Assembly (NCBI GenBank): GCA_964406775.1
Contig: CAYOSW010000005.1
Span: 1,362 to 65,361 of the forward strand
Length of the DNA stretch: 64,000 bases
DNA from: an uncultured Gammaproteobacteria bacterium
Lineage (GTDB): Bacteria > Patescibacteriota > Microgenomatia > Daviesbacterales > UBA10151
Direction of reading: 5' to 3'
Shown here one piece after another: positions 16,953 to 62,066 of the stretch. Position 1 is the stretch's first letter. Each line of letters starts with the position of its first letter. The translations under genes were made by a program, and so were the position numbers. Below the pieces are notes generated by a model that made no database searches, was not told the DNA's origin, and saw only the letters and a list, made by a program, of their open reading frames with translations.

Positions 16953-16957
16953 AAGAT

Positions 16958-19099: not shown

Positions 19100-19138
19100 A
19101 GCGAGATATTCTACCTTGAAGCGGAGATAAAAACAAGG

Positions 19139-19399
19139 CTAAGATTGATGAGCTGTAGAATTCTCCGGATTACCCTCAAGATCTTTGAGTATTTTCTTGG
19201 TTTCGCCGATACGGGCGGATAGAACTTCCCCCTGTTCCGTCAGCATCTGATAGGCTGCATTCTCGCTATTATCGCCCATATCCGTAGCGTCGCCTCTTTG
19301 TTCCATAATTGAGGCATACTCCTTCTCAAGAGTTGCGAGCTTCTCGCTCCACATTTTTACTTTTTCTTGCTTTATCTTATTGTTTGCCATAAAACACAA
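19139..19399 (-). CDS. stand-alone GreA/GreB N-terminal coiled-coil domain protein (mini-Gre)
   Basis: 86 aa ORF carrying the Gre finger-tip motif GDNSENAAY (compare canonical GDLSENAEY) within a predicted coiled coil. There is no C-terminal FKBP-like domain. The true start is probably MANNKIKQ. Confidence 0.6.
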   Translation of the reverse strand: MCFMANNKIKQEKVKMWSEKLATLEKEYASIMEQRGDATDMGDNSENAAYQMLTEQGEVLSARIGETKKILKDLEGNPENSTAHQS

Positions 19400-19527
19400 A
19401 GCCCCCTTGAGATTAATTCTTGGGGGTATTTGATGGTTACATACTAAAAAAGATTTCCGGAAATGTCAAACCTTAAGAGAACGATTGAATCCCTCTATAT
19501 CTGCTGTGCGTGTGGTAAAATTGCCGA

Positions 19528-20826: not shown

Positions 20827-21161
20827 CTGTAATTTCTGGTTCTGTCCAGATATGGCGCTTCTTTCCAATCGTGACTTATTCTTCTTCCTGAAAAGCTGGA
20901 GTCTGTAGCTACAGATAAACTTCTGAAATGGTGGCCGTCAGCACCGTGCTCACGTTCTATACCATCTTCATCAGGATATTTGTCTCCATAGTCAGCCCAA
21001 ACAGTCACGGCAGTTTTAGCCAGTTCCGCCGGCTCATCCCAATTTATTTTCGCTCCGTAGGGTAAAACCTCAAAACCTAAACCTTTAGGCTTCAAATGGT
21101 GAAACCTTTCTCTTGTAGTTCTTCGTTCTGTCCCGGGTCTGCCTGCGATATGTTCTTTCAT
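20823..21161 (-). CDS. hypothetical protein (His/Asp/Gly-rich)
   Basis: 112 aa ORF in a relatively GC-rich segment. No recognisable motif. First gene after the rpsG 3' remnant. Confidence 0.35.
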   Translation of the reverse strand: MKEHIAGRPGTERRTTRERFHHLKPKGLGFEVLPYGAKINWDEPAELAKTAVTVWADYGDKYPDEDGIEREHGADGHHFRSLSVATDSSFSGRRISHDWKEAPYLDRTRNYS

Positions 21162-21197
21162 AAGAATTTTGGGTTTTTGTTGGCGGAAGTTTCTGCA

Positions 21198-21225
21198 CCT
21201 ACCATCTAAAGTGGGCGCAGGCCTT
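21198..21225 (-). repeat. diverged duplicate of the rpsG 3' terminus (last 8 codons plus stop)
   Basis: The minus strand reads AAG GCC TGC GCC CAC TTT AGA TGG TAG, encoding KACAHFRW*. The true rpsG end at 21291-21317 reads AAG GCT TTT GCG CAT TTT AGA TGG TAA, encoding KAFAHFRW*. That is 19 of 27 nt identical, and most of the differences fall at third-codon positions. Confidence 0.5.
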
Positions 21226-21290
21226 AAAAGATTGTAGTTCTACAAGACGACGATCATTGTAGAAGCGAAAATCTCGCAAGGCTTTGCGCT

Positions 21291-21764
21291 TTACCATCTA
21301 AAATGCGCAAAAGCCTTATTGGCTTCAGCCATTCTGAGAGTATCTTCTTTCTTCTTTGCTGCGTACCCCTTGCCTTCTGCAGCGTCCATCAATTCCTGGG
21401 CTAATTTTAAGTGGAATCCGTGGAATTCTTTATTTGATTTAGCGCGGGCACCGGCGATTATCCAGCGGATCGCCAAAGATTCTTTTCTTTCTCCTCTGAC
21501 TTCAACGGGAACCTGGTAAGAGGCTCCTCCAACCCTTCTCGGACGGACTTCCATCTTCGGAGCAACGGTTGCAAGAGCGGTATCCAAAACAACCAAAGGT
21601 TTTTTGCCTGTTTTTTCGATTTGTTCGAGTGCATCATAAACCAATCTTTGTGCGGTAGTTTTTTTACCGTCACGCATTATTCTATTGATAATTTTGGTTA
21701 TAATTTTGGATCCGTAAATCGGATCTGCCTGAATTATTCTTTTCGGTGCTTTACCTGATCTCAT
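21291..21764 (-). CDS. rpsG: 30S ribosomal protein S7
   Basis: 157 aa ORF with S7 family motifs (PVVEVRPRRVGGASYQVPVEV). Immediately downstream of rpsL. Confidence 0.95.
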   Translation of the reverse strand: MRSGKAPKRIIQADPIYGSKIITKIINRIMRDGKKTTAQRLVYDALEQIEKTGKKPLVVLDTALATVAPKMEVRPRRVGGASYQVPVEVRGERKESLAIRWIIAGARAKSNKEFHGFHLKLAQELMDAAEGKGYAAKKKEDTLRMAEANKAFAHFRW

Positions 21765-22207
21765 TAGCTTGCAGCTGCGGTCTTAGGACCTGCGACTGCT
21801 CCCCCTTTCTTCTGGCCGTATTTGCTTCTGGATGTCTTTCTCTTTGCAACTCCGGACAAATCGAACTTACCGCGGATTAAATGATATTTAACTCCGGGCA
21901 AATCCTTAACTCTTCCTCCACGGACCAAAACGATACCGTGCTCTGCTAAATCGTGACCTTCACCCATAATATAAGCTGTAACTTCGGTTCTGTTGGACAA
22001 TCTGACCCTCGCTACTTTACGTAAAGCCGAATTAGGTTTTTTCGGAGTCATTGTTCTAACCAAAGTAACAACTCCCCTTTTCTGAGGGTTAAAGTTAGTA
22101 ACATATTTACGGTCTTTTGCATTATAAGAGCGTCTCAGGGCTGTCGCCTTGATTTTTCTTGCTGACGTCTTACGTCCTTTTCGTACTAATTGATTAATTG
22201 TTGGCAT
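21764..22207 (-). CDS. rpsL: 30S ribosomal protein S12
   Basis: 147 aa [16 protein letters not shown]-terminus, the [10 protein letters not shown] loop and the [13 protein letters not shown] motif. Confidence 0.95.
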
Positions 22208-22318
22208 CTCTGTTTTTTTATATTCCGGGAGAAAGAATCAAAAGATTACACGAAGTAAAATTTAAATTCCTTCATCCCTAACCGGGATTACTCTAATCCG
22301 GAAATCCGGACCAGTAAT

Positions 22319-25300
22319 TTAGGATGGTTCCATTGCGGCCCGTTCAGGGCTTGTTGGAATCAACCGGCCAATAATAACATTTTCTTTCAGTCCAATCAAC
22401 TTGTCGATCTTACCTGAAGCTGCTGCTTCCGAAAGAACTGTTGTTGTTTCAACGAATGAAGCTGCTGACAGGAAGCTTTCGGTCTGGAGTGAAGCTCTGG
22501 TTATACCCAAAACGATTACTCCTGCAGTTGCCGGCTCTCCGCCCTCTGCCAAGACTCTGGTGTTCTCTTCTTCGAATCTGGTTTTATTTACAACTTCTCC
22601 GGGCAATAATACTGTATCGCCTTGAGATTCGATTCTGACTTTATCACTCATCTTGCGGACGATAATTTCAAAGTGCTTTTCATTAATATGCACACCCTGG
22701 GATTCGTAAACTTCTTTAGCTGCGTCAACAATGTATCTTTGAGCTTCTTTAAGTCCTTTTACTCTTAAGACTTCTTTAATATCCAAATGTCCTGCGGCAA
22801 GTTGAGTTCCTGCGGAAATCAACTGACCGTCTTCAACCAAGAGATCTGCTGTGATCGGAATTGCATATTCCCTTTCTTCGTGAGGCTTGGTTGTGGTTCT
22901 GACCCTGATAACTCTTCCTGTTTCGGTGTTAGAGATAGTAACTTTTCCGGCAATTTCCGAAATCGGGCTGGTTGATTTTGGAGTTCTGGCCTCAAAAAGT
23001 TCTTCAACACGGGGCAAACCTTGTGTAATATCGATACCGACAACTCCTCCTGAGTGGAAAGTACGCATTGTGAGCTGTGTACCGGGCTCTCCGATAGCCT
23101 GAGCTGCAACAACTCCGACAGGTGTTCCGAGACCTACCGGTTTTCTGGATGACAGATCAAGACCATAGCAGGCTGCACAAATTCCATATCTTGCTTCGCA
23201 GGTAAGAGGAGCGCGCACTAAAACTTCAGTAACTTCACTCTTGTAAATTGCTTCTACTTCCGGCTCTTCAAGATAAATTCCATCCGGAAGAAGCTGTTTT
23301 TTAGTTTTCGGATCTACAACTTTTCCGAGCAACTTGCGTCCCAGGAATCTGGTTGAATTTGATGCCGGATTATCGTGAATAACTTCAACAGGGAATCCGT
23401 TTTGGGTTCCGCAGTCCTCAATTCTGACGATCATATCGTGGGATACATCTACCAATCTTCTGGTCAGATATCCTGCATCGGCGGTTCTGATAGCACGGTC
23501 TGCAACTCCCTTTCTCGCTCCTCTACAGGAAGTGAAGTACTCGAACACTCCGAGTCCTTCACGGTAGTTGGATTTTGTAGGAAGTTCCACGATTTTACCT
23601 GTCGGATCAACTGAGAATCCTCTCATTCCGGCAGTTTGCGCGATCTGAGCTGTAGTTGCACGGGCTCCTCCGGACTGCATAATGATCTGGATAGGATTAT
23701 CAGGATCGATTGCCGCAAATGTTTTTCTGACAATTTCGTCTCCAATTCTGGTCCAGACTTCCTGGGAAAGAGCGCGTTTTTCTTCGCTGGTAATGATTTC
23801 CTTTTTAAAGTTATCTTCAATATCGGCAATTTCTTTATCACCCTTAGCAATTAAGGATTTCTTCTCAGGGATAATTTTGTTGTCAAAAATACCGACTGAA
23901 AGTCCGGAAATTGTTGCGCCCCAGAAACCGAATTCTTTAATATCGTCAATCAGTTGAGCAACTTCATCTTTGGTGAAGGCTTTAAATGCCTGCATTATGA
24001 TTCTTGAGATAACTCCGGCGTTAATTGTTTCGTTGATAAAGCGGAGTGATTCAGGCAGGAAGTTGTTAAAAATAATTCTTCCGACTGTTGTTTCGATAAT
24101 TGCATCGCCGATTTTAGCTTTAATCGGAGCTCTTAAATCAAGATTTGCTGTTTGGAATGCAAATTCGGCTTCTTCTCTTGAGTAAACCTTATCGGTAAGC
24201 ACTTTTGTCTTATCAATCGAAGTTACGAAGTAAGAACCCAATGCCATTTCACGGTTAGGAACGTTGATAGGTGATGAATTCGCAGGGCGCAGAATGTTTT
24301 CTTTTGCCATCATCAGATTTTTAGCTTCTTCTTTGGCTTTTTCGGACAAAGGTACGTGAACAGCCATTTGGTCTCCGTCAAAGTCGGCATTAAATCCGGC
24401 ACAGATACAAGGGTGAATCTGGATTGCGTTTCCGTCAATTAAGATCGGGAAGAATGCCTGAATACCTAATCTGTGCAGGGTAGGCGCACGGTTGATCAGA
24501 ACCGGGTGATCTTTGATAACTTCTTCCAAAATATCCCAAACCTCCGGAGGTCTGAATTCCAAAACATTTTTAGCTCCTTTTACGTTTGAAGCCAGGCCTC
24601 TTGAGATAACTTCGCGCAGTACGAAAGGCTTAAACATCTCAAGCGCCATTTCTTTAGGAAGTCCGACCTGAGCCAATTTAAGTTTAGGACCGACGATAAT
24701 AACCGAACGTCCTGAGTAATCTACCCTTTTTCCGAGCAAATTCTGTCTGAATCTTCCCTGTTTTCCTCTCAACATCTCGGAAAGTGATCTTAACTGGTGG
24801 GTTCCGGCTCTTCTGGTTGTTCTGGATGAAGAATCGATTAATGAATCGACTGCTTCCTGAAGCATTCTTTTCTCGTTTCTTAAAATAATTTCAGGAGCAC
24901 CGAGATCAATAAGTCTTTTCAAACGGTTATTTCTGTTGATAACTCTTCTGTAGAGATCGTTTAAGTCCGAAGTTGCAAATCTTCCTCCCGGTAATTGCAC
25001 CATAGGGCGCAAGTCAGGCGGGAGAACAGGCAATATTGTCAAAACCATTGAAGCCGGAGAAATTGTTGATTTTCTCATTCCTTCAACGAGTCTTAATCTT
25101 TTAGTGGCTTTGATATGGCGCTGACCTGAAGATTTTGAAACCTCGACTCTAAGCTCTGAAGCTAATTTATCCAGATCAATCTTATTTAATACCTCAAGCA
25201 ATGCTTCAGCTCCCATCTTAACTTCAAGGAAGTCTGCAACTCCGTACTCATCAAGTTTGAAGTATTCATCCTCCGAAAGAAGTTTCATCGGATTAATATT

Positions 25301-26005
25301 TTTAACCAATTCGGAAACTGTTTTGTAAATTTCCTCAAGCTGAGCGAGCTCTACCTGGTTTTGTTCTTTGAGCTGAGCAATTTTTCTTCTTGCTTCGATT
25401 TGGAATTCGGCAGCCTGGAGCTCGAATTTCTCGTCATTGCCGATTTTCTTCTTAAGTTCTTTTAATTCTCCGGTAGTTACGTCTTCCGCTTCCTTGATTG
25501 TTTTTTCCAAAGCTTCTTTTGAAGCGTCCTGTTTTTCGCCGAGCTGTTTTTCAAGTTTTTCGATAGCTTCAGCTTTTTTATCAGTATCAATTCCGGTAAC
25601 CAGGTATGAAGCAAAGTAAATTATTGCCTCAAGATTCTTCATAGTTAAATCAAGAATCAGGGATAATTTGCTCGGCGCACCTTTAACAAACCAGATATGG
25701 GCCACAGGCGAAGCTAAAGTAATATGACCCATTCTCTCGCGTCTTACTTTGGATTGTGTGACCTCAACTCCGCACTTGTCGCAGATAACACCACGGTAAC
25801 GGATTCTTTTATATTTTCCGCAGTAACATTCCCAATCCTTTGTCGGGCCGAAAATATTTTCAGCAAATAATCCGTCTTTTTCAGCTTTCAAAGTCCGGTA
25901 ATTAATTGTTTCCGGGCGTGTAACCTCACCGAATGACCAGCTTCTGATAATATCGGGTGAAGCGATAGCTACTTTAAGTTGATCAAAATCGAGTAAATTA
26001 TTCAT
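22319..26005 (-). CDS. rpoC: DNA-directed RNA polymerase subunit beta'
   Basis: 1228 aa ORF with the N-terminal zinc finger (CYCGKYKRIRYRGVICDKCGVEV), the NADFDGDQM catalytic loop and the trigger-loop region. Confidence 0.97.
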   Translation of the reverse strand: MNNLLDFDQLKVAIASPDIIRSWSFGEVTRPETINYRTLKAEKDGLFAENIFGPTKDWECYCGKYKRIRYRGVICDKCGVEVTQSKVRRERMGHITLASPVAHIWFVKGAPSKLSLILDLTMKNLEAIIYFASYLVTGIDTDKKAEAIEKLEKQLGEKQDASKEALEKTIKEAEDVTTGELKELKKKIGNDEKFELQAAEFQIEARRKIAQLKEQNQVELAQLEEIYKTVSELVKNINPMKLLSEDEYFKLDEYGVADFLEVKMGAEALLEVLNKIDLDKLASELRVEVSKSSGQRHIKATKRLRLVEGMRKSTISPASMVLTILPVLPPDLRPMVQLPGGRFATSDLNDLYRRVINRNNRLKRLIDLGAPEIILRNEKRMLQEAVDSLIDSSSRTTRRAGTHQLRSLSEMLRGKQGRFRQNLLGKRVDYSGRSVIIVGPKLKLAQVGLPKEMALEMFKPFVLREVISRGLASNVKGAKNVLEFRPPEVWDILEEVIKDHPVLINRAPTLHRLGIQAFFPILIDGNAIQIHPCICAGFNADFDGDQMAVHVPLSEKAKEEAKNLMMAKENILRPANSSPINVPNREMALGSYFVTSIDKTKVLTDKVYSREEAEFAFQTANLDLRAPIKAKIGDAIIETTVGRIIFNNFLPESLRFINETINAGVISRIIMQAFKAFTKDEVAQLIDDIKEFGFWGATISGLSVGIFDNKIIPEKKSLIAKGDKEIADIEDNFKKEIITSEEKRALSQEVWTRIGDEIVRKTFAAIDPDNPIQIIMQSGGARATTAQIAQTAGMRGFSVDPTGKIVELPTKSNYREGLGVFEYFTSCRGARKGVADRAIRTADAGYLTRRLVDVSHDMIVRIEDCGTQNGFPVEVIHDNPASNSTRFLGRKLLGKVVDPKTKKQLLPDGIYLEEPEVEAIYKSEVTEVLVRAPLTCEARYGICAACYGLDLSSRKPVGLGTPVGVVAAQAIGEPGTQLTMRTFHSGGVVGIDITQGLPRVEELFEARTPKSTSPISEIAGKVTISNTETGRVIRVRTTTKPHEEREYAIPITADLLVEDGQLISAGTQLAAGHLDIKEVLRVKGLKEAQRYIVDAAKEVYESQGVHINEKHFEIIVRKMSDKVRIESQGDTVLLPGEVVNKTRFEEENTRVLAEGGEPATAGVIVLGITRASLQTESFLSAASFVETTTVLSEAAASGKIDKLIGLKENVIIGRLIPTSPERAAMEPS

Positions 26006-29000
26006 CTTCTCCTCCTTCTTTTTCCATTGCCTGCGCAGCTAAATCTGCCGCTTGAGCTTCAGAATTATCGTCGTTTTCAGCGTCCGCGTCAACCAGTCCT
26101 GCATCTTCTTCCTGCGCCTCAACTGCTTCCTTCTTAGTTTCAGGTTCACCCTGCGCATCAAGTACTTCCATAGGGCCTGTTTCAGCGTTCAATTCCGAAT
26201 CAACTCCGACTTCTCCGACGCCCAAAGCTTCTTTTGCAGCCTCAATCGCAGCGGTTTCTGTAGATGACTCTTCTTTAACCTCTTCTTCATTAACTTCCTT
26301 GACACCCATCGGGATAACTTCAATACCCAAGCTCTGAAGTTCTTTTACAAGCACTTTAAACGATTCAGGAATTAAGGCTTGTGGAATTTCAGTTCCTTTA
26401 ATTATTGCCTCGAATGCTTTAGCACGTCCGACAACATCATCGGATTTTAAGGTCAACATTTCCTGAAGTACATTCGCAGCTCCGTATGCTTCCAGTGCCC
26501 AAACTTCCATTTCTCCGAGTCTTTGTCCTCCCATTTGGGCTTTTCCTCCCAAAGGCTGTTGTGTAACGAGTGAGTAAGGTCCAGTCGAACGGGCGTGAGT
26601 TTTATCCTCAACCATATGGATAAGCTTCAGGAAGTAAGCAATACCCACAACAACATCCTGTTTGAAGTATTCGCCGGTTCTTCCGTCAATCAACTTTGAT
26701 TTACCTGAAACAGGCAAGTTAGCTTTTTGGAGCTGTTCGATTAAAACTTCTTCGGGGATTTTCTCAAAAACCGGAGCTGCAACTTTAAATCCGAGTTTTT
26801 TAGCCGCAAGTCCTAAATGCGCCTCAAGAAGCTGTCCCAAGTTCATACGGGAAAGCACTGTAACCGAAGAAATAATGATATCCAAAGGTGTACCGTCTTC
26901 CAAATGAGGCATATCGGCAGCGGCAACGATTTTTGAGATAACACCTTTGTTTCCGTGTCTACCTGCGAGCTTGTCTCCGGCTGTAACTTTACGCAGTTGT
27001 GCTACTTTTACTTTGATTCTTTGTAAAACTCCGGCTCCAAGATCATCTCCTGCTTCGCGGGAAAGGATTTCGATACCGATAACTGTTCCTTTTTCTCCGT
27101 GAGGCATTCTTAAAGAGGTATCGCGGACTTCTTTAGCTTTTTCTCCGAAGATCGCACGGAGCAACCTCTCTTCTGCTGTAAGCTCGGTCTCTCCTTTGGG
27201 CTGAACTTTACCGACTAAAATATCACCGGGAGCTACTTCCGCACCGATTCTGACGATACCTGTCTCATCAAGATTTGCCAAAGCTTCTTCGGAAACGTTA
27301 GGAATATCAGGAGTTACTTCATCCGGACCGAGTTTTGTTTCAACAACGTCGGTGTTATATTCTTCGATGTGGATCGAAGACAAAACATCCTGTTTAACTA
27401 ATCTATCGGAAATAACGATAGCGTCTTCGTAACCGAGTCCGTCATAGCTCATATAACCGATCAGTAAATTAGTTCCGAGGGATAATTCTCCGTTGTCTGT
27501 TGAGGTTCCTTCAATCAAAAGATCGTCGGTTTTGATTTTCTGACCGGGAACAACTGCCGGCTTTTGTGAATAACAAGTCATAGAAGGGGAGTTGACGAAT
27601 TTTTTAACTTTAAATTCCTGCTTCTGTCCTTTTCCGGAAAGCATAATTTTTTCTCCGTCAGCGTAAGTGATCTCTCCGTCAAAAGGAGCTCTGACTGTTC
27701 TTGCCATAGTGTCCGCAATCATTGTTTCCATTCCCGTTCCGATAACCGGAGCCTGAGGCAAAAGAAGCGGTACGGCCTGACACTGCATATGAGTACCCAT
27801 CAAAGCACGGTTTGCATCATCGTGAGCCAAAAACGGAATTAAGGAAGCTGAAGTTCCGACGATTTGCTGAGGTGAGATATCGATTAAATTAACTTTTTCA
27901 ACTTCGGTTTCAAAAAAGCTTCCGAGGTAACGTACCGGAACTCTGGGCTGGTTAATAAAACCTTTATCGTCCATCTCAACAGTTGCTTCGGTAATATAAA
28001 GATCTTCCTCATCATCTGCAGTAAGATAGATTATTTCATCTGTTGCGCGGGGCTTACCTTTTTCGAGAACTACTTTTCTGTAAGGAGTTTCCAAAAATCC
28101 GTATTCGTTAATTCTTGCGTACAAAGCTAAATATGTAACCAAACCGATGTTCGGTCCTTCAGGAGATCTGATAGGATCGATTCTTCCGTACTGGGAATGG
28201 TTAATATCACGGATTGAGAAGCTGGCTCTGTCTCTTGAGATACCGCCGGTACCTGTAACTGACAATCTTCTCAAATGGTCAATTTCGGAGAGGGGATTGG
28301 TCTGATCTAAAATCTGGGAAAGCTGTGAACTTCTGAAGAATTCGTTGATAGCCGCAATTACCGGGCGGGCATTAACTAATCCTGCAGCTGTAATCTCCTG
28401 GTCAAGAGATAAAAGACTCATTCTCTCTTTGATTACTCTTTCGAGTCTTTGCAGACCAATCCAGAAAGCATTTTGAGCAACTAATTCTCCTACCATTCTG
28501 ACCCTGCGGTTGCCTAAATGATCGATATCGTCGGTTTTTCCGTTGCCGTTAGCTAAATTGATCAGGTATTTGAGAGTTGCAACAATATCTTCCTTGGTTA
28601 AAATCCAATTTTCAGGAGAATTAGGAATATCCAAACCCAATCTCTTGTTGATTTTGAATCTTCCGACACGGGTTAAATTATATCTTCTGGCGTTAAAGAA
28701 CATGTTTTGAAGTAAAGACTTTGCAGTTTCCAAAACAACAGGGTCTCCGGGACGCATTTTGCGGAAGATCTCAAGAAGGGCTTCGTTTTGATCCTTGGTC
28801 GGATCTTTTGCCATTGTTGATTCGATATAGCGGTGTTCGCCGTTATTATCAACGCTTTCAAAATTGGTTCTGATTTCATCTTCGGAAAGACCCAAAGCGC
28901 GGAGCAAGGTTGTTGCGGCAAATTTTCTTCTACGGTCGATCTTAACGGTTAGAACATCCGAGCGGGAAACTCCGAATTCAAGCCAGGAACCGTGCTGAGG

Positions 29001-29486
29001 TCTGATTTCAGCACCGTAAAGTCTGCGTCCGGTAATAGGATCATCTGAGGCAGAAAAAAACGCTCCGGGGGAGCGTACTATCTGATTGATTATTACCCTT
29101 TCGACTCCGTTAATAATAAATGTACCTTTTTCGGTCATTTGCGGAATGTCGCCGAGGAATGCTTCCTGTTTATATGTATCGTTGTTTTGAAGGTTTGTTA
29201 AAACTACGCGGACTTTTAAAGGCGCATCATATGACATTCCCTTAACTTTGCACTGATCAGGGGTAAATCTGGGCTTGCCGAAGAAGTATTCTCCGAATTC
29301 AAGCTTCCAGTTTTTTCCGGTAAAATCCGAAACGGGAGTTATTTCATTAAGTAGTGTTCCGATTCCTTCATCGAGGAATTTTTGGTAAGAATCGCGTTGC
29401 AGGCGTGTAAGGTCTAGTTTTTTGACTTGTGTGGGTCTTTTTCCCCAGTAAAGTCTGCCGTTAATAGTATTAGACGCTGTTTGCAT
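25998..29486 (-). CDS. rpoB: DNA-directed RNA polymerase subunit beta, with roughly 100 aa acidic C-terminal tail
   Basis: 1162 aa ORF with conserved beta motifs (RFGEMEVWALEAYGAA..LQE.LT.KSDD). The family normally ends near IPESFKVLVKELQSLGIEV. Here it is followed by an E/D/A-rich tail and overlaps rpoC by 8 nt. Confidence 0.97.
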   Translation of the reverse strand: MQTASNTINGRLYWGKRPTQVKKLDLTRLQRDSYQKFLDEGIGTLLNEITPVSDFTGKNWKLEFGEYFFGKPRFTPDQCKVKGMSYDAPLKVRVVLTNLQNNDTYKQEAFLGDIPQMTEKGTFIINGVERVIINQIVRSPGAFFSASDDPITGRRLYGAEIRPQHGSWLEFGVSRSDVLTVKIDRRRKFAATTLLRALGLSEDEIRTNFESVDNNGEHRYIESTMAKDPTKDQNEALLEIFRKMRPGDPVVLETAKSLLQNMFFNARRYNLTRVGRFKINKRLGLDIPNSPENWILTKEDIVATLKYLINLANGNGKTDDIDHLGNRRVRMVGELVAQNAFWIGLQRLERVIKERMSLLSLDQEITAAGLVNARPVIAAINEFFRSSQLSQILDQTNPLSEIDHLRRLSVTGTGGISRDRASFSIRDINHSQYGRIDPIRSPEGPNIGLVTYLALYARINEYGFLETPYRKVVLEKGKPRATDEIIYLTADDEEDLYITEATVEMDDKGFINQPRVPVRYLGSFFETEVEKVNLIDISPQQIVGTSASLIPFLAHDDANRALMGTHMQCQAVPLLLPQAPVIGTGMETMIADTMARTVRAPFDGEITYADGEKIMLSGKGQKQEFKVKKFVNSPSMTCYSQKPAVVPGQKIKTDDLLIEGTSTDNGELSLGTNLLIGYMSYDGLGYEDAIVISDRLVKQDVLSSIHIEEYNTDVVETKLGPDEVTPDIPNVSEEALANLDETGIVRIGAEVAPGDILVGKVQPKGETELTAEERLLRAIFGEKAKEVRDTSLRMPHGEKGTVIGIEILSREAGDDLGAGVLQRIKVKVAQLRKVTAGDKLAGRHGNKGVISKIVAAADMPHLEDGTPLDIIISSVTVLSRMNLGQLLEAHLGLAAKKLGFKVAAPVFEKIPEEVLIEQLQKANLPVSGKSKLIDGRTGEYFKQDVVVGIAYFLKLIHMVEDKTHARSTGPYSLVTQQPLGGKAQMGGQRLGEMEVWALEAYGAANVLQEMLTLKSDDVVGRAKAFEAIIKGTEIPQALIPESFKVLVKELQSLGIEVIPMGVKEVNEEEVKEESSTETAAIEAAKEALGVGEVGVDSELNAETGPMEVLDAQGEPETKKEAVEAQEEDAGLVDADAENDDNSEAQAADLAAQAMEKEGGEDE

Positions 29487-42412: not shown

Positions 42413-42414
42413 TG

Positions 42415-42486
42415 TTGCGGGGAATGGATTCGAACCATTGACCTTGAGATTATGAGCCTCACGAGCTACCACTGCTCTACCCCGCG
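42415..42486 (-). tRNA. tRNA-Met (anticodon CAU), initiator-like
   Basis: The reverse complement folds as a cloverleaf CGCGGGG-TA-GAGC-AGTGGTA-GCTC-G-TGAGG-CTCATAA-TCTCA-AGGTC-AATGG-TTCGAAT-CCATT-CCCCGCA-A. It has a C1:A72 mismatch as in initiator tRNA. CCA is not encoded. Confidence 0.85.
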
Positions 42487-42505: not shown

Positions 42506-42859
42506 CTAGTGAAGAAACAACCTTAGCCAGCCTTGCCAGTTCGGAATTTTAATTTCAGGGGGTTTAACATCGGGGGTCAGAACCTTATCCACCATTTCCT
42601 GGGGAATAATTACAACTGTTTCGTTCGGAAGCGACATATTTAAGTCGTTCCGGGCAATTTCCTCTACGGAATCATAGCTTTCAGCCTGGGCCAGCTCTTT
42701 TTTTAGCTGTTTATTGTCCCTTTCAAGGCTTCCGACATCCTCCAGTAACTGGTTCAAACGTTTGTCACTGCCCAAAGCAAACGAGATCTGCTTGACCAAT
42801 CCGATCAAGATGACAATAGCCACAATAATAATAACTATGACAGACAATTTTTTATACAT
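42506..42859 (-). CDS. FtsB/DivIC-like septum formation initiator
   Basis: 117 aa ORF with an N-terminal TM helix, a coiled coil (LLEDVGSLERDNKQLKKELAQAE) and an ARNDLNM motif as seen in FtsB/DivIC. Confidence 0.6.
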   Translation of the reverse strand: MYKKLSVIVIIIVAIVILIGLVKQISFALGSDKRLNQLLEDVGSLERDNKQLKKELAQAESYDSVEEIARNDLNMSLPNETVVIIPQEMVDKVLTPDVKPPEIKIPNWQGWLRLFLH

Positions 42860-43017: not shown

Positions 43018-43887
43018 ATGATTAGCCTTAAAGACGCACATCAGCAGTTCGTTGGCCATTTAAAGGGCAGAAACCGGGCTGCAGCTACAATTCTAGCTTA
43101 CGGTAAAGACATTGAGCAACTCATTAACTTTTTAGTTTCAAACGGAAGAGAGATGTCTGAGAGTGTTTTGACCGAAGATTTAAAGCTTTTTATGGATAAA
43201 TTGAGCAAGGAAAACTACACTCCTAAATCAATTTCCAGAAAAACCAATTCGACAAAAACTTTCTTTAAATTCTTAAAAACTTCAAATTTGATCCCGGATG
43301 ATCCGGCCAGATCCTTAGAACACCCTAAATTTGAGAATAAACCGCCGAGAATCTTATCCGAACTTGAATACCGGGCGTTAAGGGACGCTTCCCGCTCCGA
43401 TTTAAGAATGTTTGCGATCATCGAACTTTTCCTGCAAACCGGAATCAGAATCGGAGAACTTGCCAAACTTCAGGTTGGTGATGCGGATCTTGATTCCAGT
43501 TCACCTTCCCTGCACATCCGCCCGGAAGAAGGAACAGTCGAAAGAACCATTCCCTTGAATAAACCTGCAGTTGAATCCATCAGAAAATACTTACAGGTCA
43601 GACCTCAAACAGCAAACCTGGCACTGTTTGTCACCAAAACCGGAAAACCTTTACTTATAAGAAACATCAGAACCGCAATCGACAGATATTTCCGCCTTGC
43701 AGGTATTAAAGAGGCCAAAGTTAATGATTTAAGACACACCTGGATTGCTCATCACTTAAAGGCAGGAACTTCTCTGCTCTTAATTTCTAAATTGGCCGGA
43801 CATAAAAGAGTTTCTACTACCGAAAGATATTTACAATTCATTCAGGGAAAAACTACCGAAGGTAAAATCACCCTCGACGAACTCTAA
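43018..43887 (+). CDS. tyrosine recombinase, XerC/XerD-like
   Basis: 289 aa ORF with the catalytic signature R (GIRIGEL), LRHTWIAHHL (the H-x-x-R box) and TTERY (the Tyr nucleophile). Its size and N-terminal core-binding domain are typical of Xer recombinases. Confidence 0.85.
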   Translation: MISLKDAHQQFVGHLKGRNRAAATILAYGKDIEQLINFLVSNGREMSESVLTEDLKLFMDKLSKENYTPKSISRKTNSTKTFFKFLKTSNLIPDDPARSLEHPKFENKPPRILSELEYRALRDASRSDLRMFAIIELFLQTGIRIGELAKLQVGDADLDSSSPSLHIRPEEGTVERTIPLNKPAVESIRKYLQVRPQTANLALFVTKTGKPLLIRNIRTAIDRYFRLAGIKEAKVNDLRHTWIAHHLKAGTSLLLISKLAGHKRVSTTERYLQFIQGKTTEGKITLDEL

Positions 43888-43899
43888 ACCCACAAACTT

Positions 43900-44403
43900 A
43901 TGTCCAAAGATATAATCAGGCCTCCGATGCCGGAAAGAAGTGTTATTGTACCTGTAGAAAGCTTTGGTATGCTACGAAGAGAAGATTTGACACCAGCTTT
44001 CCACCTCTTTGAATACAGGTTTGCGCAACTTACTAGATATATCATTGGGCGTGACTACAAGGGACCTGCATTACCTGAAGGAGTTCAAGAAGTACACAGC
44101 AGAATCCTGGCAGCAGAGGATTCACTGACTCCTGATGGACAGCTCGTAGGATATGCAAAAGTAGGTTATCAAACTCATAATCCAAATGACAAATATTTAG
44201 GCATTGCTTTCGATGGCAAAAGGGGTGTTTTTGCTCAAGCTGAACCTCGATATACCCATCCTGATTTACCATCCGGAATAGATGCATATCATCCTGGATT
44301 TGAGTATTTAGAAATGAATTACTATCCAACCGGAAGTGAAGTTGATTTAGGTAAATTATTAGGAATCCAAGAGAGATTCCAGTGTTTTGTACCTAATCAA
44401 TGA
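43900..44403 (+). CDS. hypothetical protein
   Basis: 167 aa ORF directly downstream of the recombinase. No motif recognised. Confidence 0.4.
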   Translation: MSKDIIRPPMPERSVIVPVESFGMLRREDLTPAFHLFEYRFAQLTRYIIGRDYKGPALPEGVQEVHSRILAAEDSLTPDGQLVGYAKVGYQTHNPNDKYLGIAFDGKRGVFAQAEPRYTHPDLPSGIDAYHPGFEYLEMNYYPTGSEVDLGKLLGIQERFQCFVPNQ

Positions 44404-44894
44404 TTCAAGGTCATTAAAAGTTTATTGTATTCCTTGCTTATTTCCAGATCTTCAAATCCTAATTTTCTATAAAGGGCAACGGCCGGCTCGTTCTCAGGCG
44501 AAACCGAAAGCCAGAATTTCGGATGAGGGTGTTTTTTATATTCTTCCGAATCTTTAAAATCAGCCATAACCTCTTCCGTAAACGGAAGCGCCAATCCTTT
44601 TCCGCGCGCCTTACCGTACAAACGGATAGCAAATGAGATTCCGTATTCTGAAGGGCTCTCCCGGTTTAAATAAAGATCCAAGTCGTGGAACCAGATTATT
44701 CCCAGCAGATTATCTTCATCATCAACCAGAGTATAGTAACTAAGAATTTCTTTTGAGAATTCGTCGAAGCTTTCCCTATTTTTAAATCTCTTCGGATCGG
44801 ATGTATATTTTAATCCTTCGTCAGTTGCCGCGTAATTTATGAGTTGGGAAATCTGCTTATCGGTAATGCCTTTTTTAATTTTGTAATCTTCCAT
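44397..44894 (-). CDS. GNAT-family N-acetyltransferase
   Basis: 165 aa ORF with an acetyl-CoA-binding motif-A-like segment (RLYGKARGKGLA) and the C-terminal YRKLGF motif typical of GNATs. Confidence 0.6.
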   Translation of the reverse strand: MEDYKIKKGITDKQISQLINYAATDEGLKYTSDPKRFKNRESFDEFSKEILSYYTLVDDEDNLLGIIWFHDLDLYLNRESPSEYGISFAIRLYGKARGKGLALPFTEEVMADFKDSEEYKKHPHPKFWLSVSPENEPAVALYRKLGFEDLEISKEYNKLLMTLNH

Positions 44895-44953
44895 AAGATC
44901 TCCCCTCCATAACTTGTTTTGATATCACGCTTGCCGTAAAATATCAACATTCT

Positions 44954-45028
44954 GCGCGGATAGCTCAGCGGTAGAGCGGTTGTCTTATACACAATTGGTC
45001 CCAGGTTCAAATCCTGGTCCGCGCACCA
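44954..45028 (+). tRNA. tRNA-Ile with anticodon UAU
   Basis: Cloverleaf GCGCGGA-TA-GCTC-AGCGGTA-GAGC-G-GTTGT-CTTATAC-ACAAT-TGGTC-CCAGG-TTCAAAT-CCTGG-TCCGCGC-A-CCA. It has a 7-bp acceptor stem, U33 and A37 flanking anticodon TAT, and an encoded CCA. Confidence 0.8.
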
Positions 45029-45031: not shown

Positions 45032-47398
45032 TTAAAGTCGTGCCCGTTCTGAAATATTTGCCTCAACCGCGGCCCGGTCTCTCCCGTATGTCAGCCTGGA
45101 TAGTTCGCGTATCGCCCGCCCGACTTCAGGACGGCGCATTTTTTGCCATTCCTCATAGGACGGGAATGTCGTGTCTACGGAGAAAGGATGAACGGGCTCT
45201 CCCTGCACCTGGGTTTTTACATAGATGTGGCGCGCTTCAATATTAACCAGATCCTGCTCATTAAAAGTAGGCGCAAACTCGTGCTGGAGGAAGTTGGCAT
45301 CGGTGACACCGACACGGAAAGCGATCACCGTACCGACGTTACCGAAAACGGCATTTTTTAACTCCTCGCCTATCTGACCTATAAATTGGTTAGCGACGGT
45401 TAAATTCAGCTTATATTTACGCGCCTCGGCCAAAATTTCAGCAAAAGTGTCGGTTGCGAAGTTTTGGAACTCATCAACGTACAGGAAAAAGTCGCGTCTT
45501 TGTTCCTGAGGAATATCGGTTCGGCTCATTGCAGCGGCTAAAATCTTCGGAACCAGAACCAGCCCTAAAAAGTTTGAATATTCATCCCCGATCCTCCCTT
45601 TTGATAAATTCACAATCAGAATCTTTCCCTGGTCCATAACCTGACGCAGATTGAACGAAGAGACAGATTGGCCGATGATATTTCTCATCATCATATTGGT
45701 AACAAACCGCCCGAACTTTGATACGTTATAATCCAAAATTTCCGATTTATGGAATTCTGCAGTTTGGGCAATCTGGTCGGTCCAATACCTGCGGACAACC
45801 GGATCCTGAACGTAGGGCAAAAGCTCCTTTACGAATTCCGGATCAGTCAAAACACGTACCACCTCAAGAAAAGTATTGCCGGGTTTACTCATACAGGTCA
45901 GCATCGCATTACGGACGTTATGCTCAAACCTCGGCCCGATAATACCGGTTTTATGAGGATCATAAAGCTTGTACATCAGTCCGATGATTGAAGCAACCAC
46001 AAAGTGTTTTTGCTCCTCGGTTGTGGCTTCAAGCATATTCAAACCGAAGGGGCGGGCAGAATCAGAGGGGTCAAAATAAATTACATCCTGGGCGCGGTTG
46101 GGCGGAATCCTCTCCAACATATCTTCCGCCGCATCTCCGTGGGGATCAATAAAACAAATACCCCGACCGGCATAAATATCCTGAATCATCATAGACTTTA
46201 AAAGCTCGGTTTTTCCGGTACCGGTTCTTCCGATGATATACATATGCCTTTGACGGTCAAAATCGGAAATAAACACCGGCCGTTCCTGACCCCGGAATTT
46301 CGATTTACCGATATAAAGACCTTTTGTCGGAATTTTTTCAGGAGGAGGGGCCGATTTGGCGGGAAGCCACTGAATATGCGGAGTTTCAACTTGTTTATTC
46401 GGTAAGTGGAAAAGCGAGGAAATCTCGTCCGCAGTTAAAACGGAAAGTTTATCAAATCTGGGTAGATATCTGTAAACAAAATCTCTGATAAAGCCTTTTT
46501 GTGAAGGAATTTTGGCTCCAGTAAAGCCGTTATACGGCCCGTTAAACTGCTCAAAAGCCGCTTTAATGTTGCCTAAATGAGCCTTAGCGGCTTCCTCCGA
46601 AGTCGAGGATGTAACAATCCGAACTATGGTTGAAAATCCGGCTTTAGTTATCTTTCCCTCGACTGCCTCAAGCTGTTTCTGATCCGGAGGAGCTTTCGGC
46701 TTCTCACCGTCTCCCGGATCGCGCTCCTTTTTCAGGAATTTCTTTCCCGAATTCTTAAAGTCATCGCCTGCAGGAGCTATAAGTAATTGAATTACCGCCC
46801 CTTCTCCCTGCTGCATTTTTCCGAGTGCTGAGGTAATACCTGATAACGGATCTGTCGGAAGCTCCTTATAAGTTTTTATCGGAAAATAATCGGAAGATTT
46901 AAGTTTGTAAGCGGTATAGGCAACCTTGCCGGTTTCCGAAAAAATATTATATTCAGGAACTTCTTTTACCGATGCGTCCGGATATGCTCCGTTGATTTGT
47001 TTTTCAATTAAATCCTGGTATTTTTTATGGCAGGCGACGTAAAATCTGATCGATTCCGGCAGCGCCACAATCTCAAAGGCAATATGAGGTTGGGGCTTTA
47101 AGTCCTTAAACATCCCCAAAAATCCTCCCGCTCCGATTTTTATGGAATACAGAGCTGAGATAAACTGCTCGGCCGCGTCAATTTTTACTTCATTGGCCTT
47201 AGGAACGGTAATTTGCAGCAGTACAAACCCCAATGAATATTTCTCCCGCTCCCGGTATTTATACAGATTCTTAAAATATGGATAAAAATATATCAAAAAA
47301 CCAATCAGAATGAGTGTTCCGAACAGGGCGACTAAAACCAAAACTGCAAAAAACAATAAGTCCGGTCCCTGAGCAACAGTAGTTTGAGTAACTTCCAT
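45032..47398 (-). CDS. membrane-anchored FtsK/HerA/TraD-superfamily P-loop ATPase (type IV coupling-protein-like)
   Basis: 788 aa ORF. Two N-terminal TM helices, Walker A HMYIIGRTGTGKTE and Walker B FFLYVDEFQNF. The architecture resembles VirD4/TraG/TraD coupling proteins. Family assignment is tentative. Confidence 0.5.
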   Translation of the reverse strand: MEVTQTTVAQGPDLLFFAVLVLVALFGTLILIGFLIYFYPYFKNLYKYREREKYSLGFVLLQITVPKANEVKIDAAEQFISALYSIKIGAGGFLGMFKDLKPQPHIAFEIVALPESIRFYVACHKKYQDLIEKQINGAYPDASVKEVPEYNIFSETGKVAYTAYKLKSSDYFPIKTYKELPTDPLSGITSALGKMQQGEGAVIQLLIAPAGDDFKNSGKKFLKKERDPGDGEKPKAPPDQKQLEAVEGKITKAGFSTIVRIVTSSTSEEAAKAHLGNIKAAFEQFNGPYNGFTGAKIPSQKGFIRDFVYRYLPRFDKLSVLTADEISSLFHLPNKQVETPHIQWLPAKSAPPPEKIPTKGLYIGKSKFRGQERPVFISDFDRQRHMYIIGRTGTGKTELLKSMMIQDIYAGRGICFIDPHGDAAEDMLERIPPNRAQDVIYFDPSDSARPFGLNMLEATTEEQKHFVVASIIGLMYKLYDPHKTGIIGPRFEHNVRNAMLTCMSKPGNTFLEVVRVLTDPEFVKELLPYVQDPVVRRYWTDQIAQTAEFHKSEILDYNVSKFGRFVTNMMMRNIIGQSVSSFNLRQVMDQGKILIVNLSKGRIGDEYSNFLGLVLVPKILAAAMSRTDIPQEQRRDFFLYVDEFQNFATDTFAEILAEARKYKLNLTVANQFIGQIGEELKNAVFGNVGTVIAFRVGVTDANFLQHEFAPTFNEQDLVNIEARHIYVKTQVQGEPVHPFSVDTTFPSYEEWQKMRRPEVGRAIRELSRLTYGRDRAAVEANISERARL

Positions 47399-47892: not shown

Positions 47893-48183
47893 CTAAGCAA
47901 GGTTAGGTAAAACACACACAACTCTTCCTAATATTCTTTTTCTTTCAATCCAGGGGTAAGACTTGGAGTCATTACTGTTATCCCCCTTTACTAAAATAAG
48001 CTTATTCTTAGCCTCCGCAACTCTTTTAACAATCACTTTATCCCCGTCTCTGAAGGCAATCAGGTGTCCTTTTTTTGGATTCAAAAATAAATAAGGCAAC
48101 CCCGTTACCAATATTTCCTGACCCGGATTTAGCACGGGCTGCATACTGTGACCGGAAACTTTAAAACGGGACAGAACGATCAT
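47893..48183 (-). CDS. sodX: S26-family signal-peptidase-like maturation protease for Ni-SOD (SodX-like)
   Basis: 96 aa ORF with SGHSMQP (the Ser nucleophile box) and VKRV (the Lys box) of the Ser/Lys dyad. Lies directly downstream of sodN, overlapping it by 4 nt. Confidence 0.65.
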   Translation of the reverse strand: MIVLSRFKVSGHSMQPVLNPGQEILVTGLPYLFLNPKKGHLIAFRDGDKVIVKRVAEAKNKLILVKGDNSNDSKSYPWIERKRILGRVVCVLPNLA

Positions 48184-48689
48184 TCACTTTCGTAAGTAAC
48201 AATCTCGCCCTCTGTGGGGTAGAGTGATTTAATTCTCTTTGGCGTTACTCCCTTGGATTTGTAAAATATTTCAGCAAATTCCTGCACTTTAGAAAGGAGC
48301 TGTCCTGCCGATTCTCTATCTATGTCCTGTTTGGCTTTTGACGCCAGTTTCATTATTTCAAAAACCAGTTGATGAAGTTCCGGGAACTTCTCCAGGTGTT
48401 CAGGCTTAAAGTAGTCGCCCCAGATTACCCTTACCTCGTATTTAATTTTTTCAGCGTGATCTTCTTTAGTCCGGGTAAGTCTGGCTATCTTATGCACATC
48501 TTCGCCGGCCTCGGACAATAAATCCGTCATTCTTATAACCGTATGTGCCGAAAGTTGAGCTTCGTGGGGGTCATATATTCCGCAGGGAATATCACAATGA
48601 GCGTAAATAGTACCTAACGGAAGAAATTTTATAATAAGACTTACAATCCGCATAGTTAAAAATATAACACTTCGCATCACATTAACCAA
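48180..48689 (-). CDS. sodN: nickel superoxide dismutase precursor
   Basis: 169 aa ORF. Leader peptide followed by HCDIPCGIYDP, the Ni-hook (His-Cys-x-x-Pro-Cys-Gly-x-Tyr). Also has conserved GDYFKPEHLEKFPELHQLV. Confidence 0.85.
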   Translation of the reverse strand: MVNVMRSVIFLTMRIVSLIIKFLPLGTIYAHCDIPCGIYDPHEAQLSAHTVIRMTDLLSEAGEDVHKIARLTRTKEDHAEKIKYEVRVIWGDYFKPEHLEKFPELHQLVFEIMKLASKAKQDIDRESAGQLLSKVQEFAEIFYKSKGVTPKRIKSLYPTEGEIVTYESE

Positions 48690-60209: not shown

Positions 60210-62066
60210 TTAAGCCAGCTCTGCCCTGATTCTGCGGATACCCGCCGAAATAGCCTCCTCTTTCGTGATTTTCAGACCTTTAATGATTCCTGTCTTCTCA
60301 ACGTGTGGACCGCCGCAAAATTCCAGAGAATAATAACTCCCCCTTTCGCGCTTATCTTTACTTGTCGGTTCCACAGCATAGTCAGGACCGATACAGTAAA
60401 TAGAGACATTAGACTTATCGTATTTTTCATCAAATAGTCCTATGGCATTCATAGATTTCGCTTCCTCAAAGGTCATATATTTGCGCTCAACCTTTAAATC
60501 TTCCGCAATTTTTTCGTTTACCAGCTCCTCCACCTCCCTTAACTCCTCATCAGTCATTTTTCTGTCGAATGAGAAATCAAACCTCAATCTTTCCGTTGTA
60601 ATATTCGAGCCTTTCTGAAAGACCTCAGGTCCCAGAACGTCACGCAGGGCCTGATGTAGGAGGTGAGTCGCCGTGTGGTATTTTGTTTCTATTTCGGAAT
60701 GCCCGGCTAATCCTCCGGCAAATTTTCCCACGGAAGCAGTCCGTGAAAGATCCCTGTGTTTTTTAAATTCATCCTCAAAATCAGCCTTATTGAGGGTCTG
60801 TCCTTTTTGACGTACCAACTCAATCGTCAGCTCGAGAGGAAATCCAAAGGTTTGATATAAATCAAATGCGGCTTTCCCGTCAATATTTTTAAGTTTGCCT
60901 ACCTCTTTTAGTCCTTTATCAAGCGATTTTCCGAATTTTTCCATCTCTTCAACAATCACTCTGACAACCAGTTCCCTTTGGGACTTTTCATTAATGCCGA
61001 ATAAGCCGTCATAAATTAATAAAACAGCATCTGCGCAGGCCGCTTCAAAAGCATCAGTAGGAATTTCTCCTTTATTAACCTTCCCGCGCAATTCGTGCAT
61101 CTTCACCGCTACGCGTCTTATAAGGCGGCGCAATACATAACCCTGCATCTTATTGGAAGGGAGGACCCCGGAAACAATTAAAAATGTTGCCGCTTTCAAG
61201 TGATCCGCAATAATCCGGATATTCGGCTTTGATTCATTCTGTGAATAATTTTTGCCTGAGTATTTTTCAATAAGCTTAATTACTGGCAGATATAAATCGG
61301 TATTAAAAATATCGGGATCGTCATTTGCTGCAGCCGCAAGGCGTTCGAGCCCTCCACCGAAGTCCACATTTTTTTGAGACAATTCCTCAAATTCCCCATC
61401 TCCGGTTTTTTTATACTGAATAAAAACTGAATTAGCAATTTCAGAGAATCTTCCGCACTCACAGTTGGGATGACATTTTTCTCCAAAAGCTGGGTCGTGT
61501 TTGACGGATTCGAACTCATAAAAAACCTCAGAATCCGGACCCCCAATTTCACCCACAGGCATTTTATCGGGCGTTCCCGACTTTGACCACCAGTTTTTTG
61601 AAACCCCGTATTCAAAAATCCGCTCTTCCGGAATCCCCAAACTTTTCCAAATCTCCCGACTCTCCTCGTCCTTCGGAACGAACTCATTTCCTTCAAAAAC
61701 AGTCACATACATTCTCTCTTTAATTAGCCCGAGCTCTTCCGTTAAAAATTCCCATATCCAGGATAATTGTTCTTTTTTAAAGTAGTCGCCCAGTGACCAG
61801 TTTCCGAGCATTTCAAAAGCAGTGGTATGACGGTTATCACCGACTTCTTCAATATCCTCGGCGCGGAAAGATGGTTGCGAGTTTACCAGGCGCACACCCC
61901 CTGGATGCTTCTCCCCCAACAAAAACGGCACTAGAGGCTGCATTCCTGATGAAGTAAAAAGCGTCGTCGGGTCATTCTCCAAAACCAGTTTTGCCGGTTC
62001 AATTTCTTGATGTCCCCGTTTAACGAAAAATGAAATGTATTTTTGGCGGATATCCCTGCTTGTCAT
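60210..62066 (-). CDS. alaS: alanine--tRNA ligase, compact form lacking the C-Ala domain
   Basis: 618 aa ORF with class II motifs (RHTTAFEMLGNWSLGDYFK), the editing-domain HTATHLLH and CGGPHV. No C-terminal C-Ala domain. Confidence 0.85.
   Translation of the reverse strand: MTSRDIRQKYISFFVKRGHQEIEPAKLVLENDPTTLFTSSGMQPLVPFLLGEKHPGGVRLVNSQPSFRAEDIEEVGDNRHTTAFEMLGNWSLGDYFKKEQLSWIWEFLTEELGLIKERMYVTVFEGNEFVPKDEESREIWKSLGIPEERIFEYGVSKNWWSKSGTPDKMPVGEIGGPDSEVFYEFESVKHDPAFGEKCHPNCECGRFSEIANSVFIQYKKTGDGEFEELSQKNVDFGGGLERLAAAANDDPDIFNTDLYLPVIKLIEKYSGKNYSQNESKPNIRIIADHLKAATFLIVSGVLPSNKMQGYVLRRLIRRVAVKMHELRGKVNKGEIPTDAFEAACADAVLLIYDGLFGINEKSQRELVVRVIVEEMEKFGKSLDKGLKEVGKLKNIDGKAAFDLYQTFGFPLELTIELVRQKGQTLNKADFEDEFKKHRDLSRTASVGKFAGGLAGHSEIETKYHTATHLLHQALRDVLGPEVFQKGSNITTERLRFDFSFDRKMTDEELREVEELVNEKIAEDLKVERKYMTFEEAKSMNAIGLFDEKYDKSNVSIYCIGPDYAVEPTSKDKRERGSYYSLEFCGGPHVEKTGIIKGLKITKEEAISAGIRRIRAELA

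Follow-up and report, generated by a model that had tools for sequence, protein, structure and literature searches.

A chromosomal tRNA-Ile with an encoded UAU anticodon in Candidatus Daviesbacteria belongs to a CPR-wide family and probably reads AUA without lysidine

Decoding of the isoleucine codon AUA is the textbook example of a single wobble modification, the lysidine made by the essential enzyme TilS, that fixes the identity of the codon together with that of the amino acid. TilS has been described as almost universal in bacteria (PMC11938285). Mycoplasma mobile, which lacks tilS, relies on a UAU tRNA that is left unmodified; its isoleucyl-tRNA synthetase (IleRS), with Arg865, tolerates U34, and AUG is rejected by its ribosome (PMC3575796). 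This tilS-less UAU type was counted in 9 species from 3 clades in 2013 (PMC3575796), and later counts gave 19 species (PMC4013482) and 17 genomes (PMC8450103). The corresponding tRNA-Ile2(UAU), named tRNA-Ile3(UAU) in tRNAscan-SE 2.0 (PMC8450103), also occurs in haemoplasmas and in Bifidobacterium and Neorickettsia, the latter two with a eukaryote-type (type-2) IleRS (PMC3575796). In the literature searched, we found no paper that links lineages of the Candidate Phyla Radiation (CPR) to tilS, lysidine or AUA decoding. Here we describe a tRNA-Ile(UAU) gene in a 64-kb stretch of contig CAYOSW010000005.1 (the window), which is core chromosome of Candidatus Daviesbacteria (CPR/Patescibacteria, Microgenomates). 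The gene quite likely encodes the minor tRNA-Ile of this organism, which would read AUA through its encoded UAU anticodon with no lysidine from TilS, and belongs to a core family found CPR-wide. The class of mechanism is already established; what appears to be new is its spread across CPR and the deep synteny of its loci, which are unreported in the searched literature.

The original prediction, made from the letters of the locus, was a tRNA-Ile with an encoded UAU anticodon, good cloverleaf geometry and an encoded CCA, and all of these features were confirmed. ARAGORN, which had been suggested as a check, returned isotype Ile with anticodon tat on the forward strand at 44954-45028, the isotype being assigned by this program from the anticodon alone. 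The Rfam model RF00005 matched over its full length (model positions 1-71, window positions 44954-45025) with Infernal at 74.3 bits (E = 2e-14; gathering score 29) and no non-canonical pair. The cloverleaf is built from the acceptor stem GCGCGGA/TCCGCGC, the D arm GCTC-AGCGGTA-GAGC, the anticodon arm GTTGT-CTTATAC-ACAAT, a 5-nt variable loop (TGGTC) and the T arm CCAGG-TTCAAAT-CCTGG. The tRNA carries A73, U12-A23 and C4-G69 and lacks C29-G41. The first three are present in E. coli tRNA-Ile as well. They were reportedly defined as isoleucine identity determinants by Nureki and colleagues in 1994, and they fit an Ile identity of the window tRNA.

Support for the anticodon comes from related genes. 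We gathered a family of 157 CPR tRNA genes (130 unique) and analyzed covariation in 45 of them, thinned to below 90% identity. The anticodon loop is CUUAUAC in 142 of the 157 genes, CUUAUAA in 9 and CUUAUAU in 6. Among the 45 thinned sequences, 99.7% of the cloverleaf cells are paired, and 20 of the 21 pairs have changed on both sides; none of 500 shuffles reached the covariation score and no slid register came close. Positions C32 to A37 (alignment columns 33-38, anticodon included) and A73 are invariant in this set; 44 of its members retain U12-A23 and 34 retain C4-G69. A73 is likewise present in all 155 family genes scored for it. Thus, the gene at 44954-45028 is a structurally intact canonical tRNA under strong purifying selection. 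Because only 23 of 155 genes encode CCA, the encoded CCA of the window tRNA is not a family trait. The loop with C32 and C38 sets the CPR genes, together with archaeal ones, apart from viral and most other bacterial genes.

The original prediction had named a C-to-T sequencing error at position 34, which would turn an ordinary CAU gene into an apparent UAU gene, as a possible flaw. Since the same CTTATA loop recurs in 157 related CPR tRNA genes from independent assemblies, T34 is not such an error. An assembly artefact, or a reassignment of AUA with the tRNA charged otherwise, is highly improbable. An Ile isotype that ARAGORN reads from the anticodon alone would leave room for another identity, but A73, U12-A23 and C4-G69 fit Ile, and the codon alignments argue against reassignment. 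AUA accounts for 321 of the 1,499 Ile codons in the window open reading frames (ORFs), a share of 21% or 16.1 per thousand codons; this answers the calculation of AUA usage that had been proposed with the prediction. When RpoB, RpoC, EF-Tu and EF-G were aligned to their E. coli counterparts, AUA sites stood opposite Ile in 47% and opposite Met in 6%, as compared with 45% opposite Ile for AUU/AUC and 53% opposite Met for AUG. Similarly, in the ATPase encoded next to the tRNA, aligned to 35 orthologues, AUA stood opposite Ile in 61% of cells and opposite Met in 3%, and AUU/AUC opposite Ile in 67-68%. AUA aligns to Ile as AUU and AUC do and is therefore an ordinary Ile codon in this genome. In the highly expressed genes rpoB, rpoC, tuf and fusA (14539-29486), AUA makes up 6% of Ile codons (17 of 265) versus 21% window-wide; such a depletion is consistent with a low-abundance decoder and would suit a minor tRNA.

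We then propose a model for AUA decoding by this tRNA. The gene would be transcribed from the forward strand, the product would be charged by IleRS, and U34 would pair with the A of AUA. Exclusion of AUG might follow the example of Mycoplasma mobile, where U34 is unmodified and the ribosome discriminates; other candidates are a modification of U34 or a tuning of the anticodon loop by the conserved C32 and C38. The earlier reading that the gene implies AUA decoding without lysidine is supported.

To describe the distribution of the gene, we scanned a collection holding one genome per prokaryotic species. The exact 75-nt gene had no match in this collection, in which the source genome does not serve as a species representative. 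A degenerate pattern (D-loop GGTA, CTTATA and T-loop GGTTCRANTCC) gave at least 120 matches, and all 120 of those listed are tRNA(tat) genes according to ARAGORN. By record title, 86 of the listed matches belong to CPR lineages, 7 to Archaea, 7 to an unnamed 'bacterium' and 20 to other bacteria. The 86 CPR genes span about 20 named lineages, including Saccharibacteria, Paceibacteria, Parcubacteria, Minisyncoccia, Kaiserbacteria, Levybacteria, Daviesbacteria, Curtissbacteria, Collierbacteria, Beckwithbacteria, Dojkabacteria/WS6, Magasanikbacteria, Uhrbacteria, Nomurabacteria, Vogelbacteria, Taylorbacteria, Adlerbacteria, Kerfeldbacteria and Staskawiczbacteria. Because CPR make up well under 10% of the species in the collection, their enrichment among the matches is large. 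The statement that an encoded UAU anticodon is rare therefore holds for the literature counts (9 and 19 species; 17 genomes) but not for CPR, across which it is widespread. Outside CPR, 5 of the 20 listed loci from other bacteria hold arrays of three or more tRNAs; in metagenome-assembled genomes of Treponema and Phycisphaerae (loci L073 and L112), tRNA(UAU) lies within arrays of 12-20 tRNAs. Most of the non-CPR genes in arrays have A38, and their setting suggests a prophage or tRNA-island origin.

Neighbour clustering of the 86 CPR genes resolved two deep syntenic contexts. The first, of Saccharibacteria and Parcubacteria type, has the order ftsH-tRNA-recG, with FtsH adjoining the tRNA in 37 loci and RecG in 31. 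The second, of Microgenomates type and including the window, combines the tRNA with a VirD4-like ATPase (16 loci), a Xer recombinase (14) and DivIC (8). The first context was also seen in a sample drawn independently of the tRNA, namely 80 metagenomic loci selected with a Saccharibacterial FtsH query only (67-91% identical). In 56 of these, the sequence continues for 1.2 kb or more beyond the downstream end of ftsH; tRNA(tat) lies within 2 kb on this side in 55 of them, and in the 56th it lies at 3.8 kb.

Several other RNA-related genes were observed around tRNA(UAU). tRNA-Ser(GCU) is a common neighbour (14 loci among L007-L126 and 7 among L251-L330), and tRNAs with an ACT anticodon occur nearby as raw ARAGORN calls (3 and 5 in the same two sets, respectively). 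A pseudouridine synthase of the RluA family (PF00849) is encoded within 2.5 kb of tRNA(UAU) in 6 of the 86 CPR loci, for example at 1409-2227 of L115. In eukaryotes, the anticodon of tRNA-Ile(UAU) contains pseudouridine; the RluA adjacency may reflect lineage synteny.

An origin on a mobile element had been suggested for the window tRNA, with the nearby recombinase as a sign of it. On this account, the tRNA would have arrived on a phage or integrative element by means of the tyrosine recombinase and would supplement AUA decoding. A tyrosine recombinase and a conjugation-like ATPase are indeed encoded nearby, and viral contigs are rich in tRNA(TAT) genes (at least 120 matches). However, the best NCBIfam models for the recombinase are XerC, XerA and XerD, and the gene lies beside DivIC in 14 CPR loci, a synteny kept across Microgenomates; it is predicted to be a housekeeping Xer-type protein, not a phage integrase. 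The ATPase has a position kept across Microgenomates and more than 5,600 homologues, and so looks like a core CPR gene rather than a part of a conjugative element; its named homologues are nearly all from Candidatus Daviesbacteria or Microgenomates.

The order thioredoxin reductase, nickel superoxide dismutase, ATPase, tRNA, ..., Xer, DivIC and tRNA-Met is kept in four Daviesbacteria relatives (L002, L003/L004, L005 and L006), whose ATPases are 86, 78, 72 and 69% identical to that of the window, respectively. The slot after the ATPase holds a tRNA(tat) in all five Daviesbacteria examined, that is, the window and these four, two of which lie on contigs of 744 and 770 kb. GC content is flat across the window (0.38-0.45, and 0.436 at the tRNA), and no repeats, inverted ones included, were found to flank the tRNA. 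When the window tRNA was ranked against 242 gathered tRNA(tat) genes, its nearest relatives were all chromosomal CPR genes, from Daviesbacteria (L049, 93%; L029, 86%) and Saccharibacteria (L092, 92%; L095, 88%). The best of the 117 viral tRNA(TAT) genes listed reaches 75% identity, and 111 of these 117 have A38 or U38 versus C38 in the window tRNA. A blastn search of a phage database with the tRNA returned generic tRNA similarity only, at up to 78%. Slot synteny, flat GC and the low viral identity thus refute the suggestion that the tRNA is element-borne, which we regard as very unlikely; tRNA-Ile(UAU) is instead a core chromosomal gene, probably of vertical inheritance.

The orientation of the gene could be read in favour of an element. 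Between the window and L002 (4654-4727), the tRNA gene alone is inverted, with collinear flanking genes and an ATPase 86% identical. In the FtsH-selected CPR loci, tRNA(UAU) is co-oriented with ftsH in 50 and opposite in 14. Since both orientations occur relative to ftsH and the gene is inverted relative to L002, tRNA(UAU) has flipped repeatedly in CPR. A very different type of tRNA(UAU) occupies the same slot in L003 (12562-12633) and L005 (12815-12886). Its acceptor stem is AGGCCCG with an A1-U72 pair, its variable loop has 4 nt and its D stem is altered; rapid divergence could explain this type, as could substitution by a tRNA from another source.

If the window tRNA is the sole AUA decoder of its genome, then tilS and tRNA-Ile2(CAU) would have been lost, which we hold to be likely. 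No gene for TilS or another PP-loop protein was found among the ORFs scanned in the window, and tRNA-Ile(tat) and tRNA-Met(cat) are the two tRNA genes that ARAGORN called there. In Southlakia epibionticum, a cultivated Saccharibacterium, an essential tilS (SEML1_0730, 885 nt) lies directly upstream of ftsH according to a transposon-sequencing gene table (PMC10633639). Upstream of ftsH, we found no tilS in any of the 54 metagenomic loci that show 1.5 kb or more of this side, in about 20 genomic CPR loci or in the Collierbacteria locus L051. Across all fetched DNA, tblastn with E. coli TilS, run with no CPR TilS as positive control, gave no TilS, and a scan of 1.68 Mb for ORFs with the SGGxDS motif of PP-loop proteins found none. 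ORFs upstream of ftsH that were considered as TilS proved to be an S1-domain protein, an M3 peptidase, SmpB, a pilin, a radical-SAM protein, PyrE/PyrF and Trp/TyrRS. A TilS of jumbo phages was also set aside as a lead, as it resembles that of Rickettsiella and not of CPR.

The Southlakia epibionticum genome also has three 'tRNA-Met' genes near ftsH, two of them flanking DivIC, and a single annotated tRNA-Ile, which lies in the rRNA operon (PMC10633639). Because this Saccharibacterium has tilS at ftsH and no annotated second tRNA-Ile, CPR is a mosaic of TilS-type and UAU-type genomes. The Collierbacteria locus L051 reads ftsH, a tRNA-binding protein, Trp/TyrRS, tRNA(CAT), DivIC, Xer and tRNA(UAU). 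Three Microgenomates loci (L017, L054 and L075) hold an initiator CAT tRNA, one further CAT tRNA and a TAT tRNA, a trio that appears to mirror the three CAT genes of Southlakia epibionticum. This evidence from the loci is circumstantial and would fit a replacement of tRNA-Ile2(CAU) and TilS by tRNA-Ile(UAU). Probing of the fetched loci for IleRS returned archaeal IleRS and, in L093 only, CPR LeuRS and ValRS, with no CPR IleRS. An IleRS able to recognise U34 would be expected to have Arg or Lys at the position of E. coli W905, or a type-2 C-terminus. For the IleRS of Southlakia epibionticum, no zinc-finger domain is listed, and two C-terminal domains in tandem are assigned to one ECOD fold (PMC10633639); this is a hint of the type-2 C-terminus described in bioRxiv 10.64898/2026.02.03.703510.

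The genome might instead decode AUA redundantly, with tilS and tRNA-Ile2(CAU) retained and tRNA-Ile(UAU) as a supplementary decoder. Double systems, proposed to be a transitional state, are known in Lactobacillus casei, L. plantarum and Cyanothece, and Ferrimonas is also listed with both (PMC3575796); at least one CPR bacterium keeps an essential tilS, and 64 kb of this genome was examined. Redundancy would, however, be unexpected in the strongly reduced genomes of CPR, and in the one TilS-positive CPR genome that was examined, a second tRNA-Ile is not annotated. The empty tilS site upstream of ftsH and the lack of PP-loop ORFs in the scanned DNA also speak against it, and on balance we consider redundant decoding rather unlikely.

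Several points nonetheless weigh against a lysidine-free, CPR-wide decoding system of this kind. The double systems just described are one. The TilS negatives depend on the E. coli query and the SGGxDS motif used without a CPR positive control, and tilS and tRNA-Ile2(CAU) were judged from about 1% of each genome. The CAT tRNAs near the loci of relatives are initiators and one second class that may be either Met or Ile2. The enrichment in CPR uses an approximate share of these lineages in the collection, and the scan pattern demands a particular D loop and T loop and may favour certain tRNA backbones. Finally, a promoter and terminator scan found no consensus promoter upstream of the window tRNA and no terminator; by eye, TAAAAT is present at 44938-44943, 10 nt 5' of the gene start.

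The genomic setting of the window agrees with a core chromosome (Table 1). In a rough gene call, 94% of the window is covered by 81 ORFs. Their size and order point to a ribosomal-protein cluster, EF-Tu and rpoB/rpoC, and Pfam identified EF-G, TGT, AlaRS, methionine aminopeptidase and glycolytic enzymes. The ATPase gene is convergent with tRNA-Ile(UAU), its stop codon lying 3 nt from the tRNA 3' end; the 788-aa product has an N-terminal DUF8128 followed by a VirD4/TraD-like coupling-ATPase domain. On the other side of the tRNA, the GNAT gene is present in L002 and absent from L003, L005 and L006, and a look-up of its protein returned nothing beyond one 1.4-kb contig.

Table 1. Features in and around the tRNA-Ile(UAU) locus of the window
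Feature	Position	Strand	Basis and remarks
tRNA-Ile(UAU) gene	44954..45028	+	ARAGORN, Rfam RF00005, sequence, family covariation; discriminator A73 at 45025; encoded 3' CCA at 45026-45028 included
Anticodon loop C32 U33 U34 A35 U36 A37 C38	44984..44990	+	Sequence; C32 at 44984, U33 at 44985, anticodon U34-A35-U36 at 44986-44988, A37 at 44989, C38 at 44990
Membrane VirD4/TraD-like ATPase, DUF8128	45032..47398	-	Pfam, NCBIfam; orthologues adjoin tRNA(UAU) in L002, L003, L005 and L006
Small GNAT acetyltransferase	44397..44894	-	Pfam, NCBIfam; divergent from tRNA-Ile(UAU)
Xer-type tyrosine recombinase (predicted)	43018..43887	+	Best NCBIfam models XerC, XerA, XerD; kept beside DivIC in relatives
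DivIC/FtsB septum-formation protein	42506..42859	-	Pfam PF04977; syntenic in relatives
Initiator-type tRNA-Met(CAU)	42414..42486	-	ARAGORN, Rfam; identical or near-identical in L002 and L003

The tRNA-Met(CAU) belongs to the conserved neighbourhood of AUN-box tRNAs. It has a C1xA72 mismatch and an A11-U24 pair, and its CCA is not encoded. Its anticodon stem contains A29-U41, G30-C40 and G31.U39, and thus keeps one of the three consecutive G-C pairs normal for initiators; relatives vary at these positions.

Two further observations concern genes beyond the ATPase. A nickel superoxide dismutase (47893-48689, reverse strand; PF09055, with the motif HCDIPCGIY) adjoins a thioredoxin reductase gene; the next gene in relatives encodes a small S26/S24-type peptidase, which is probably its maturation protease. 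This oxidative-stress cluster of superoxide dismutase and thioredoxin reductase is kept in Daviesbacteria. The alanyl-tRNA synthetase (60210-62066, reverse strand) has 618 aa and stops right after the tRNA_SAD domain, seemingly without a C-terminal domain; the E. coli enzyme has about 876 aa.

It is tempting to speculate further that a large part of CPR, and with it a sizeable share of bacterial diversity, has replaced TilS and lysidine by tRNA-Ile(UAU). Under this scenario the distinctive C32/C38 loop would be shared with DPANN-type archaea, the switch would date far back or go together with an archaeal-like (type-2) IleRS, and TilS-bearing Saccharibacteria would be the exception. AUG would be excluded in a novel way, such as tuning by the loop, a U34 modification of a new kind or some property of the ribosome. 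We regard this far-reaching version as unlikely as a whole.

If the pattern seen at these loci holds genome-wide, CPR would be by far the largest group with an alternative way of decoding AUA. TilS-type and UAU-type CPR relatives would share the ftsH locus, so that the switch could be traced stepwise. tilS belongs to the widely used GTDB bac120 set of bacterial single-copy markers; its absence from UAU-type genomes would then be biological and not due to assembly incompleteness. Saccharibacteria are genetically tractable (PMC10633639) and would offer a second, independent lineage in which to study AUA decoding, making it possible to test how misreading of AUG is avoided, how IleRS accepts U34 and whether tilS is dispensable.

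Compared with the known systems, the window tRNA shares its anticodon with the phage tRNA-Ile(TAT) genes that are abundant in sequence data. Unlike it, these lie in arrays (mean 5 tRNAs per locus), have A38 or U38 in most cases and, among the genes listed, are at most 75% identical to it. The tRNA-Ile2(CAU)/TilS system of Southlakia epibionticum shares with it the task of reading AUA as Ile and a neighbourhood of ftsH, DivIC and Met tRNA genes, but there CAT is encoded and TilS is essential, whereas the window tRNA encodes U34 directly.

The archaeal tRNA-Ile(UAU), known from Nanoarchaeum equitans and Korarchaeum cryptofilum (PMC8450103), is alike in that UAU replaces a modified cytidine, in this case the agmatidine made by TiaS. 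Archaeal members, including those of DPANN and Bathyarchaeia, have the C32...A37-C38 loop in 6 of the 7 listed genes, and their median identity to the window tRNA is 75%, equal to that of other CPR genes. They belong to another domain, however, and IleRS adjoins the tRNA in 4 of the 7 listed loci (L068, L074, L090 and L106), an arrangement not seen in CPR. With the Mycoplasma mobile type, the CPR tRNA has in common an encoded TAT, an Ile-type tRNA, a reduced-genome bacterial host and AUA as an Ile codon, and it presumably replaces the TilS/lysidine route as well. The absence of tilS, the adaptation of IleRS and an unmodified U34 have been shown for the Mycoplasma mobile type and may apply to the CPR family. 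In contrast to that type, about 90% of the CPR tRNAs carry C38, and they form a family across many lineages in two syntenic contexts, rather than a sporadic event in single species.

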